Virus record (IMG/VR): IMGVR_UViG_3300045988_168103
Location: 1-38,545 of that record
Source: a virus
Length of the DNA: 38,545 nt
Strand: one strand, 5' to 3'
The position numbers and the translations under genes were made by a program. Below are positions 13,629 to 14,996 of this stretch, piece by piece. The notes beneath the pieces are model-generated. The model did not search any database and had not been told where the DNA came from. It was given only the letters and a program-made list of their open reading frames with translations. Numbering within the stretch: position 1 is the stretch's first letter; every line of letters begins with the position of its first letter.

Positions 13629-13641
13629 AAAAATTATTCTT

Positions 13642-13685
13642 TTCGACAACATTCGACAAAAAAGCACAATTGAAAGTGCTATAAT
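13642..13685 (+). promoter_or_regulatory. Moron promoter: TTCGACAA x2 (10-nt period), N17, TGCTATAAT
   Basis: TTCGACAA at 13642-13649 and 13652-13659; extended -10 TGcTATAAT at 13677-13685. Confidence 0.55.
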
Positions 13686-13717
13686 TTATTTATAATAAAT
13701 GAAATGGAGGTTTTAAT

Positions 13718-14008
13718 ATGGGATTATTTGATAAAGGGTATGAAAATTCTACTGAAAATTTATATAAAAATATAGAAAAATATCTTAAACAAAAAGATGG
13801 AAAAAAGCACATAATAATGCTTAATACAATGTCAAAATCAACAACAAATGGATTAGAGTGTGAAAATAAGTATACTATTCAAATTAATAATATAATTGAA
13901 AAAATGCAATCAAATGGATATGAAATTATAGATATAAAAATAGACAATACTATGTTTCAATCAATGGGCAGTGCTTTTTTAATAAGAACATTAATAGTAT
14001 ATAGATAA
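13718..14008 (+). CDS. Hypothetical protein (96 aa), first gene of the tail-module moron
   Basis: ORF track; GGAGG RBS; no recognisable family. Confidence 0.6.
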   Translation: MGLFDKGYENSTENLYKNIEKYLKQKDGKKHIIMLNTMSKSTTNGLECENKYTIQINNIIEKMQSNGYEIIDIKIDNTMFQSMGSAFLIRTLIVYR

Positions 14009-14023
14009 AATGGAGTTGATGAA

Positions 14024-14983
14024 TTGAAGAATAATCATAATACAAAAGGAAAATTAGTTTTATTATTGGGATTGTTAAATTTATTAATAAGTACACTCTT
14101 TATAAATAATAGTTTCTCAATTTTTTTATTTTTCTTCGTAATTTTTACTATATGTTTTTTATGGGAAAGAAAAGTTGTAGTCCAAATTCTTGGAAAACCA
14201 ATAATAAAAGAAATTAGTAAATTACATAAAATTAAAGAAAGACTAGAATTTGAGATTAGAGATTTAGAAGTAAGCAAAGAAGAAATTAAAAAATATATAA
14301 ATAATAACCAAGAAATTCTTAGTCTAATTAGTAAATACCAAGAAAATATTAATCAACTAATTGAAAATAAAAATAAAATTCGTGTAGAAATAATAAAATT
14401 AGAAGATAAAAAGAATAGATTAGAACAAATTACTGAACACGAAGACATTATCAATAGAGCAATAAAAGGAGAAGAAAGGACATTTGACATATTATCAAAT
14501 AAAAATAATACTTTAAAAAAAGAAAAAGAAAAATTACAAAAAGAACTAGAAATTCTAAATAGTAAAATAAAATCAGAAAAAGAAAAAATAGATTTTATAA
14601 ATAAATGCGATTTTGGATTAATAGATAATCTTGATGGATTTGAATTTGAAGAATTTTGTGCTAAATTATTAAAAGTTAATGGATATGAAAATGTGACGAA
14701 TACACAAAAAAGCATAGACTATGGAATAGATATTATCGCGGAAAAAGATAAAGTAAAATATGCGATACAATGTAAAAGATATAATGGAAAAGTTGGAAAT
14801 GATGCGATTCAAGAAGCTATGACAGGCAAAGACTATTATGACTGTAATATTGCAGCTGTATTAACTAATAGTAAATTTACACATAATGCTCAAAAACTTG
14901 CTAAAGCTACTGGAATAATATTGTGGGACAGAGATACATTGCAAAATATGATAGAAAAGAACAAGATAAAAACACTTACTTAG
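14024..14983 (+). CDS. Membrane-anchored coiled-coil protein with a C-terminal Mrr_cat-like (PD-(D/E)xK) restriction endonuclease domain
   Basis: TTG start 8 nt after GGAG. N-terminal TM segments (LVLLLGLLNLLISTLFINNSFSIFLFFFVIFTICFLW), then about 140 aa of coiled coil. The C-terminus reads FEFEEFCAKLLKVNGYENV..DYGIDIIAEKD..YAIQCKRYNGKVGNDAIQE. Confidence 0.7.
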   Translation: MKNNHNTKGKLVLLLGLLNLLISTLFINNSFSIFLFFFVIFTICFLWERKVVVQILGKPIIKEISKLHKIKERLEFEIRDLEVSKEEIKKYINNNQEILSLISKYQENINQLIENKNKIRVEIIKLEDKKNRLEQITEHEDIINRAIKGEERTFDILSNKNNTLKKEKEKLQKELEILNSKIKSEKEKIDFINKCDFGLIDNLDGFEFEEFCAKLLKVNGYENVTNTQKSIDYGIDIIAEKDKVKYAIQCKRYNGKVGNDAIQEAMTGKDYYDCNIAAVLTNSKFTHNAQKLAKATGIILWDRDTLQNMIEKNKIKTLT

Positions 14984-14996
14984 GTAGGTGTTTTTT
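14972..14996 (+). terminator. Rho-independent terminator closing the moron
   Basis: ACACTTAC-TTAG-GTAGGTGT followed by TTTTT; overlaps the stop codon. Confidence 0.7.

Follow-up and report, generated by a model that had tools for sequence, protein, structure and literature searches.

The window analysed here, a 38,545-nucleotide stretch of viral DNA (IMG/VR record IMGVR_UViG_3300045988_168103, positions 1 to 38,545), is a temperate siphovirus genome of ~29% GC. Between the genes for its tail assembly chaperone and its tape measure protein (TMP) it carries a two-gene cassette of ~1.4 kb (13629-14996). We found that this cassette is a moron-type insert in a hypervariable cargo hotspot, that its promoter is resident in the hotspot, and that its second gene, ORF-B, encodes an Mrr_cat nuclease domain behind a predicted membrane anchor and coiled coil. 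By analogy with known systems, we judge the chances to be about even that ORF-B is a prophage-encoded defence or superinfection exclusion protein that cleaves DNA at the membrane. A sequence-only reading of the window had described the cassette before us, and each feature that it named was recovered at, or within a few bases of, the position given there. The cassette consists of two plus-strand genes with an extended -10 promoter and an intrinsic terminator, laid out as follows (aa, amino acids; AF2, AlphaFold2; RBS, ribosome-binding site; TM, transmembrane).

13642-13658, plus strand: two perfect tandem Spo0A-type boxes (TTCGACA-N3-TTCGACA), each the reverse complement of TGTCGAA
13677-13685, plus strand: extended -10 element TGCTATAAT, 21 nt after the second box
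13706-13710, plus strand: RBS of ORF-A (GGAGG), from the sequence
13718-14008, plus strand: ORF-A, ATG start, a soluble alpha/beta protein of 96 aa (phrog_17572)
14012-14015, plus strand: RBS of ORF-B (GGAG), 8 nt 5' of the TTG start
14024-14983, plus strand: ORF-B, TTG start, a predicted membrane-tethered coiled-coil Mrr_cat nuclease of 319 aa (PF04471, AF2)
14051-14170, plus strand: predicted two-helix TM hairpin, ORF-B aa 10-49 (hydropathy, AF2, flanking charges)
14171-14608, plus strand: predicted coiled-coil stalk of ~145 residues, ORF-B aa 50-195 (AF2 helix 49-194, heptad periodicity)
14621-14953, plus strand: Mrr_cat PD-(D/E)xK nuclease domain, ORF-B aa 200-310 (PF04471, invariant residues, Foldseek)
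14968-14997, plus strand: intrinsic terminator overlapping the ORF-B stop codon (hairpin 14968-14991 and a U-tract)

The hotspot became apparent when we used the chaperone protein as an anchor to survey 80 IMG/VR relatives (75-100% identity), 70 of which also contain the tape measure gene. In those 70 phages the junction between the two genes measures 407-3552 bp and holds 24 different cargo sets. A single one, L309 (we give comparison loci L numbers), carries ORF-A and ORF-B there, the latter with a 1-nt deletion. The junction had been described as normally contiguous in siphovirus genomes, which does not hold for this phage group: no empty chaperone-TMP junction was found among the relatives examined, and in the one related phage in GenBank, Bajarodcaudo virus 4, the site is occupied by other, unrelated small ORFs. 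Since one relative in 70 carries the pair, we also rejected a role for it as a conserved structural part of the virion. Because the cassette has its own promoter and terminator at the sequence level, a GC content of 0.21 over 13600-14800 compared to 0.28-0.30 on either side, and a junction whose content differs among close relatives, we agree with the earlier designation of it as a moron. Its terminator folds with a dG of -13.8 kcal/mol (z = -4.3), a stability matched by none of 200 shuffles; late transcription must read through this element to reach the tape measure gene.

The alternative cargo includes TM2 and zinc-ribbon proteins; bPH_3 plus SHOCT, bPH_2, and DUF4429 plus SHOCT proteins; DUF4190/DUF5067 membrane proteins; FtsK_alpha-like proteins; and ANT/Bro antirepressors, DUF3102, ORF6C and an OB-fold protein. 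For instance, in L022 (4550-9605) the cargo between the chaperone and tape measure genes forms a 4-kb island, made up of a TM2 protein, a SHOCT protein, an ORF-B relative, an ORF-A relative, a PhdYeFM/YoeB toxin-antitoxin (TA) pair, a DUF4190/DUF5067/DUF4352 protein and a second ORF-A relative. A pair that recurs is bPH_3+SHOCT followed by a small FtsK_alpha-like protein (L300 5581-6754; L301; L334; L321 8704-9114), and DNA-translocase fragments and membrane modules repeatedly co-occur. In L020 (907-1955), genes for an Ltp-family lipoprotein and a TM2/zinc-ribbon protein lie directly 5' of a tape-measure-like gene; Ltp is the family of a known Streptococcus superinfection exclusion protein.

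Our most unexpected result was the conserved Spo0A-box promoter of this hotspot. The sequence-only reading had recognized two copies of TTCGACAA (13642-13649 and 13652-13659) together with TGCTATAAT as the cassette's own promoter, and had called it prophage-type. The promoter is indeed present, and the repeat is significant: the 8-mer occurs five times in the window against 0.2 expected, a count reached in none of 100 shuffles. However, the promoter was not brought in by this cassette; it is resident in most cargo variants of the hotspot and drives whatever cargo sits there, and it is better described as probably Spo0A-controlled, the repeat being a pair of tandem Spo0A boxes. TGTCGAA is the "0A box" of Spo0A, which the C. 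difficile Spo0A also recognizes, and box pairs 3 bp apart are bound at the A2c promoter of phages phi29 and Nf (PMC3485338, PMC2731898).

Across the loci compared, the promoter module has a regular layout: the boxes, then (AAAG)TGnTATA(A/C)T at an offset of 27-29 nt from the start of the second box, then GGAGG. This offset holds in the large majority of tandem-box promoters examined. In most cargo variants (L300-L379) the module begins ~13 nt after the stop codon of the T ORF, and it heads unrelated cargo in more than 30 hotspot variants. Further copies lie in L016 (5351), L083/L084 (5936), L091 (5929) and L022 (5930, 7000, 8004 and 9291), where the module is repeated before several individual cargo genes, and others lie ahead of ORF-A relatives that occupy different positions in tail modules. 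Within hotspots there are 33 perfect boxes per 40 kb, versus 9 per 310 kb outside them, and other Clostridia loci yielded one tandem pair in 1.59 Mb. Among the sites compared, the module with a 28-nt offset was confined to low-GC contigs (23-31% GC), and no boxes were present upstream of the relatives of ORF-A in the phage records examined from Lactobacillus, Lactococcus and Fusobacterium.

We consider control of the hotspot promoter by Spo0A~P probable on the strength of these motifs and their spacing. The geometry resembles that of the Spo0A-activated sigma-A promoters spoIIG and spoIIE, in which -35-like and -10 elements stand 21-22 bp apart. The window promoter has no -35 element at 17-bp spacing to TGCTATAAT, and a simple sigma-70 scan of the window returned sites at no more than chance frequency (45 versus 51.6 expected). 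With the phi29/Nf sites and with spoIIG and spoIIE it has in common the 7-bp consensus, the pairing of boxes 3 bp apart and their overlap with the upstream part of the promoter. The phi29/Nf sites differ in that they silence early promoters of a virulent phage, whereas the boxes described here head accessory genes of temperate Clostridia phages. In the literature that we surveyed, no paper links 0A boxes to prophage morons. We also considered TTCGACAA as an operator of the phage repressor, which is unlikely, as the cI/cro intergenic region (~29.9-30.1 kb) lacks this sequence.

Similar elements were seen elsewhere. A second promoter of this type at 26560-26610 on the minus strand is composed of a degenerate box, 3 bp, a perfect box (26599-26606, minus strand), 21 nt and TGATATAGT. 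It heads a 105-aa ORF without a family (26550-26233, minus strand), located between lysin and integrase, and this ORF resembles a further moron, controlled in the same way. One more box, at 27230-27237 (minus strand), shares a 14-mer TTCGACAAAAAAGC-like sequence. Tandem-box sites sampled from IMG/VR (L388-L467) include, among the matches listed, other phage groups with other geometries: a 36-37% GC phage group has a 17-nt spacer from tandem TTCGACA boxes to TGATATGAT, L429 and L404 have arrays of three to four boxes with 10-bp phasing, and L443 has boxes with inverted TGTCGAA partners.

Profile searches and structure prediction, which the sequence-only reading had proposed as checks, were run on both proteins. 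For ORF-B they bear out its description as a protein with two TM helices, a coiled coil and an Mrr_cat-type PD-(D/E)xK domain with conserved catalytic residues, the membrane anchoring being predicted. We accept the TTG start for this gene; nearby ATGs run into stop codons, and all homologues begin with MK-. Hydropathy analysis marks hydrophobic segments at aa 10-28 and 29-49, and the AF2 model (pLDDT 87.8) places helices at 4-25 and 31-47, followed by an unbroken helix over 49-194 (pLDDT above 90) and an alpha/beta domain. Lys and Arg residues flank the hairpin on both sides, and we therefore predict an N-in/C-in topology. Between aa 56 and 195, hydrophobic residues recur with a 3.5-residue periodicity (power 1.87 versus a shuffle mean of 0.215, reached by 0 of 5000 shuffles), and the stalk is probably a dimeric coiled coil. 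At 0.15 nm for each of 146 residues it would be ~20 nm long, and the nuclease is predicted to hang by it from the inner face of the membrane.

The nuclease domain was identified by a match of aa 200-310 to the full PF04471 Mrr_cat profile (positions 1-115; 108 bits against a cut-off of 21, E = 3.8e-31); the other Pfam matches, NA-iREase1 (41 bits) and Mrr_cat_2, scored much lower. Residues E209, D232, D236 and Q249-C-K251 are invariant in 22 homologues of 35-100% identity, which argues that ORF-B is an active enzyme. In an alignment with the Mrr-like protein AF1548 (1Y88), D236 falls on the catalytic D and QCK on ECK. A Foldseek search with the AF2 model returned 1Y88 (E = 9e-6), MspJI, AspBHI, Can2 and Hjc, so that model and search agree on a restriction-endonuclease-like alpha/beta fold; the lack of any such fold, together with the lack of a protection or toxicity phenotype, is what the sequence-only reading had said would count against its proposal. 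Pfam searches at E <= 0.1 detected neither Mrr_N, or a similar DNA- or modification-recognition domain, nor DUF4041 in ORF-B.

When 1.84 billion proteins are clustered at 50% identity, the N-terminal TM and coiled-coil module of ORF-B occurs in only 11 of the clusters. Nine of these 11 are not short fragments and span 206-334 aa, eight of them 289-334 aa, and a search of the 11 representatives for fusions of the module to other effectors found none. Short TM-Mrr_cat proteins (150-220 aa) are common in Lachnospiraceae genomes and phages: an N-terminal TM segment is predicted in 138 of 182 distinct close relatives, and the closest Mrr_cat relatives from cultured or named phages adjoin an integrase. 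Roseburia phage Jekyll (L386 2512-3354) encodes a zinc-ribbon, TM2-like two-TM and Mrr_cat fusion beside an Xre-type TA pair and an integrase; the zinc-ribbon/TM2 unit is a separate hotspot cargo gene in L351. Mrr_cat relatives farther removed from ORF-B, of 408 aa, include an FtsK_gamma domain. The nearest genome record to the window is a human-gut Clostridia metagenome-assembled genome (MAG) with a 94% identical ORF-B, more distant copies occur in Clostridium and Clostridiaceae MAGs, and exact copies recur across many human-gut metagenome assemblies.

Searches with PADLOC gave no match of ORF-A or ORF-B to a named, validated defence system, only matches at the level of domains: for ORF-B, the ZorD nuclease domain (1.7e-23), PDC-S02 (3.3e-16, 57 bits) and mREase_IV (1.2e-5). 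PDC-S02 is the best whole-system match: like ORF-B, this candidate consists of one gene of comparable length, and its Mrr-like domain lies in the corresponding place at the C terminus (query 166-312 on profile 162-308 of 334; two further PDC-S02 models matched more weakly). However, only the C-terminal 44% of the profile is aligned, and PDC-S02 is itself a computational candidate. ORF-B shares the PF04471 family and the D...(Q/E)xK signature with E. coli Mrr, type IV enzymes and ZorD; it differs from Mrr and ZorD in its predicted membrane anchor and in lacking Mrr_N, an SNF2 helicase and ZorABC partners. The ZorD match covers only positions 917-1067 of 1071, and no ZorA, ZorB or ZorC genes lie nearby, so the locus is not a Zorya system. 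Nor is it a Lamassu system: the matches are weak and partial (LmuA, 25 bits; LmuB, 20 bits on the coiled coil), and there is no second large gene.

Two other comparisons bear on function. HK97 gp15, TP-J34 Ltp, P22 SieA, Pseudomonas P-FimU and Tab block superinfection, several of them via the tape measure protein (PMC3594210, PMC10883804). Like such classical morons and exclusion genes, the cassette is an independent transcription unit in the late or tail operon of a temperate phage with a (predicted) membrane-associated product; unlike the known proteins, which prevent entry with no enzymatic domain, ORF-B has the domain of a nuclease. SNIPE (PD-lambda-1) joins a TM anchor to DUF4041 and a GIY-YIG nuclease, and its tethering prevents self-cleavage (Saxton et al., Nature 2026; PMC13190303). 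Its target is siphovirus DNA, which it cleaves as the DNA is being injected, while associated with the tape measure protein (PMC13190303). SNIPE and ORF-B, as the latter is predicted, are both single polypeptides that are anchored in the membrane at the N terminus, elongated and helical in the middle, and end in a cytoplasmic nuclease, and the ORF-B gene directly adjoins a siphovirus tape measure gene. The parts differ: SNIPE has DUF4041, GIY-YIG, usually one TM segment and an N terminus outside the membrane, whereas ORF-B has a PD-(D/E)xK Mrr_cat domain, a plain coiled coil instead of DUF4041 and a two-TM hairpin. No SNIPE-type Pfam match and no PD-lambda-type PADLOC match was found for ORF-B, which thus shows no sign of homology to SNIPE by any of these measures, and the resemblance is one of analogy. 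We regard the architecture of ORF-B as a new one within a known class of candidates, that of membrane-bound nucleases against phages or of PDC-S02-like proteins.

Our proposal is that a horizontally exchanged accessory cassette occupies the G/GT-tape measure hotspot of a temperate siphovirus of low-GC Clostridia. Transcription would start at the hotspot promoter, with a predicted start site near 13692, tandem boxes at ~-50 to -34, an extended -10 element and no canonical -35, and would end at the cassette terminator, so that the cassette could be expressed independently of the late operon and probably under host Spo0A~P. The two-helix hairpin would hold the probably dimeric stalk and the Mrr-type endonuclease on the cytoplasmic face of the membrane. 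There the nuclease would cut foreign DNA at its point of entry into the cell, while the tether would keep it off the nucleoid, a logic that we borrow from the unrelated SNIPE, for which it was shown experimentally. More tentatively, and with a good deal of doubt, we suggest that the dedicated TMP-side cargo slot of temperate siphoviruses from spore-forming Clostridia is wired directly to Spo0A~P through its resident promoter, such that interchangeable membrane anti-phage genes, including an ORF-B convergent with SNIPE, are switched with the sporulation decision.

Several observations weigh against a defence by cleavage at the membrane. ORF-B has no recognizable DNA-binding or target-recognition domain, which leaves the discrimination of foreign from self DNA unexplained, and a ~20-nm stalk reaches into the cytoplasm, so the nuclease is not strictly confined to the membrane. 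A PDC-S02 representative gave no protection in E. coli B against T7, T5 and T4, and the PDC-S02 match is confined to the C-terminal half of the profile. In L309, which is the same locus as L024 (IMGVR_UViG_3300045988_165307), the 1-nt deletion at about codon 80 frameshifts ORF-B (~6001-6960 of L024); the gene is otherwise 95% identical and its remainder is open in another frame, so either ORF-B is dispensable or the contig contains an assembly error. The cassette lies on the late-operon strand and is hence also transcribed during lytic growth. Finally, the proposed Spo0A control derives from promoter sequence, and a similar tandem-box arrangement, that of phi29/Nf A2c, represses instead of activating (PMC2731898). 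Any Spo0A effect may therefore be either activation, as at spoIIG and spoIIE, whose geometry is similar, or repression, as in the phi29 precedent.

The first gene of the cassette, ORF-A, matches phrog_17572 (E = 3.7e-23), and a profile search collected 576 relatives, nearly all of 95-98 aa. The sequence-only reading had not recognized a family for it, and we likewise found none in Pfam, NCBIfam or PADLOC; a scan of 61 aligned members gave scattered sub-threshold matches only. Its AF2 model (pLDDT 79.8) has the order alpha-beta-alpha-beta-beta and no TM segment, and Foldseek searches with it against the PDB and BFVD returned nothing significant. Resemblances to Cse60, MinE, dodecin and Alba-like proteins were weak (TM-score ~0.4-0.5) and were dropped. 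In both Lactobacillus prophage Lj928 and Lactococcus bIL312, a relative of ORF-A is flanked by the repressor and the integrase, and in Fusobacterium phiFN37 one lies near a ToxN gene.

The sequence-only reading had presented the two genes as one architecture, unlike any named system known to it. No named system was matched in our searches either, but the genes are not a fixed unit. In 58 of 58 other IMG/VR loci, ORF-A relatives had no Mrr gene within 6 kb; in L083 and L084, ORF-A stands alone 3' of the tape measure gene, and in L091 it is paired with a bPH/SHOCT gene. From the side of the nuclease, we examined 11 lineages of ORF-B relatives (40-100% identity), all in a tail-module neighbourhood, ten between chaperone and TMP and one just 3' of the TMP gene. 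ORF-A adjoins ORF-B in five of them (the window group, L380, L382, L142 and L022), a SHOCT-type protein does so in four (L381, L019, L016/L141 and L022), and an 82-aa zinc-ribbon two-TM protein in three (L383-L385). The partners of these three types show no relationship with one another, and kinship of ORF-A with the bPH/SHOCT partners in particular was rejected (hhalign probability <1%). The pair was also sought outside phages: in a genome scan, the four loci that matched beyond Mrr_cat (L140-L143) all lay beside phage tail-module or tape-measure-like genes, and a plasmid collection held no match. An obligate two-gene system is excluded by these data, and the pair is one of several groupings drawn from genes that are shuffled among these loci. 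We view ORF-A as a small, widespread cytoplasmic protein in its own right, often found beside the nuclease but dispensable there, and possibly its modulator.

The company that ORF-B keeps is also where an abortive infection or toxin module has to be weighed, in which ORF-B would be a toxic nuclease, latent until infection is sensed and then destructive to the DNA of host and phage alike, and the small upstream protein (ORF-A in the window, bPH/SHOCT or zinc-ribbon-TM proteins elsewhere) its inhibitor, sensor or antitoxin. A small gene lies directly or closely upstream of the nuclease in all 11 lineages. ORF-A adjoins it in five of the 11 compared to one of 23 nuclease-free cargo types (Fisher p ~0.008, from counts that are not phylogenetically independent), and so a functional link is possible. 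In the window, ORF-A and ORF-B are 15 nt apart and share one promoter and terminator, and TA pairs occur in the same hotspot. Nevertheless, we regard this explanation as doubtful. ORF-A relatives stand in 58 of 58 other loci without an Mrr gene, in L091 ORF-A is paired with a bPH/SHOCT protein instead, and in L022 it is downstream of the nuclease with its own promoter. Likewise, the upstream partners are mutually unrelated, and bPH/SHOCT genes precede FtsK_alpha-like genes too, so that the upstream slot looks like an ordinary first position for cargo.

It is less probable still that ORF-B is a membrane-located, type IV-like modification-dependent restriction enzyme, for which the anchor would be incidental and, as for E. 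coli Mrr, modified DNA alone would be cut. Mrr_cat is the best family match, the structural neighbours include the modification-dependent MspJI and AspBHI, and PADLOC reports the mREase_IV match. ORF-B, however, has no Mrr_N, SRA or other modification-reading domain, its N terminus consisting of TM segments and coiled coil only, and the Mrr_cat fold is common to modification-independent enzymes (ZorD, LmuA variants and Can2-type).

A developmental role instead of defence, either Spo0A-timed DNA processing or degradation at the membrane or septum during sporulation or breakdown of host DNA in lytic growth, could account for the tandem Spo0A-type boxes, for the co-orientation of the cassette with the late operon, and for the FtsK_alpha-like and FtsK_gamma-fused relatives in the hotspot or the domain family. 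We think this improbable: ORF-B is absent from nearly all close relatives and interrupted in one, and hence cannot be needed for the phage life cycle, and the promoter drives unrelated cargo too, hence it says nothing specific to the nuclease. That the cassette is inactive or being lost, with Mrr_cat binding DNA or serving as a scaffold without catalysis, as in the NA-iREase type, is very unlikely, because the NA-iREase1 score falls far below that of Mrr_cat, the catalytic positions are all invariant across 35-100% identity, and exact ORF-A with intact ORF-B recurs on many independent contigs, despite the frameshifted copy in one relative and the split in the adjoining TMP gene, which could mean a decaying prophage.

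With regard to the surroundings of the cassette, the window encodes an integrase (27910-29085, minus strand) and a cI-like helix-turn-helix (HTH) repressor (29561-29908, minus strand), from which we take its temperate lifestyle, as well as an SPP1-type portal. The genes that flank the cassette are the following.

12805-13266, plus strand: tail assembly chaperone (gpG-like), left flank, with weak matches to PF12363 Phage_TAC_12, PF19591 and the phrog_183 tail chaperone
13095-13628, plus strand: -1 frame extension (gpT-like part of G/GT), left flank, open from 13095
15023-17993, plus strand: tape measure gene, right flank, in two frames (15023-15337 and 15420-17993), phrog_1535 E = 7e-101

The placement of the cassette between a G/GT chaperone and a tape measure gene was correctly called: the phrog_1535 match identifies the latter, and the G/GT label holds because the -1 frame is open over 13095-13628 and slippery heptamers, GGGTTTT and TTTTTTC at 13098-13107, are in phase with the G frame. 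The single 955-aa TMP of relatives aligns to the window as aa 1-104 and aa 121-955 in different frames. The same split is found in L012-L014, and since these are independent contigs a single misassembly does not explain it. A frameshift, a programmed shift or a defective prophage could be the cause. Two-part TMP-like genes were also seen in L381 (425+477 aa) and L384 (623+289 aa). Minus-strand ORFs within the cassette are mirror images of the Lys/Glu-rich coding strand, and an Rfam scan of 12500-16000 at E <= 0.1 detected no non-coding RNA. Farther upstream, a putative major capsid-region protein (371 aa, 9491-10606) has a C-terminal S-layer SbsC-type domain (PF18316, E = 9e-14), and a mosaic break lies in the head-tail connector region (window 11330-12018 versus L012 2121-3988). 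There, L012, elsewhere 95-98% identical, encodes an HNH (NUMOD4/HNH_3) endonuclease, whereas small, unrelated ORFs occupy this place in the window; we rejected disruption of an HNH gene in the window, which holds a different mosaic segment.

If ORF-B does cut entering DNA, then immunity that tells self from non-self by location would have arisen independently with a second nuclease fold, and prophages of gut Clostridia would be among its carriers. To our knowledge, such immunity has so far been shown only for SNIPE, a GIY-YIG enzyme. The class could be large, because short TM-Mrr_cat proteins are common in Lachnospiraceae. In addition, the Spo0A-box promoter, if it acts as its sequence suggests, would link the expression of prophage cargo to the sporulation decision of the host. 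The hotspot itself is a practical resource, easily located by its order of chaperone, tandem boxes, cargo and tape measure gene, and rich in uncharacterised small membrane proteins.

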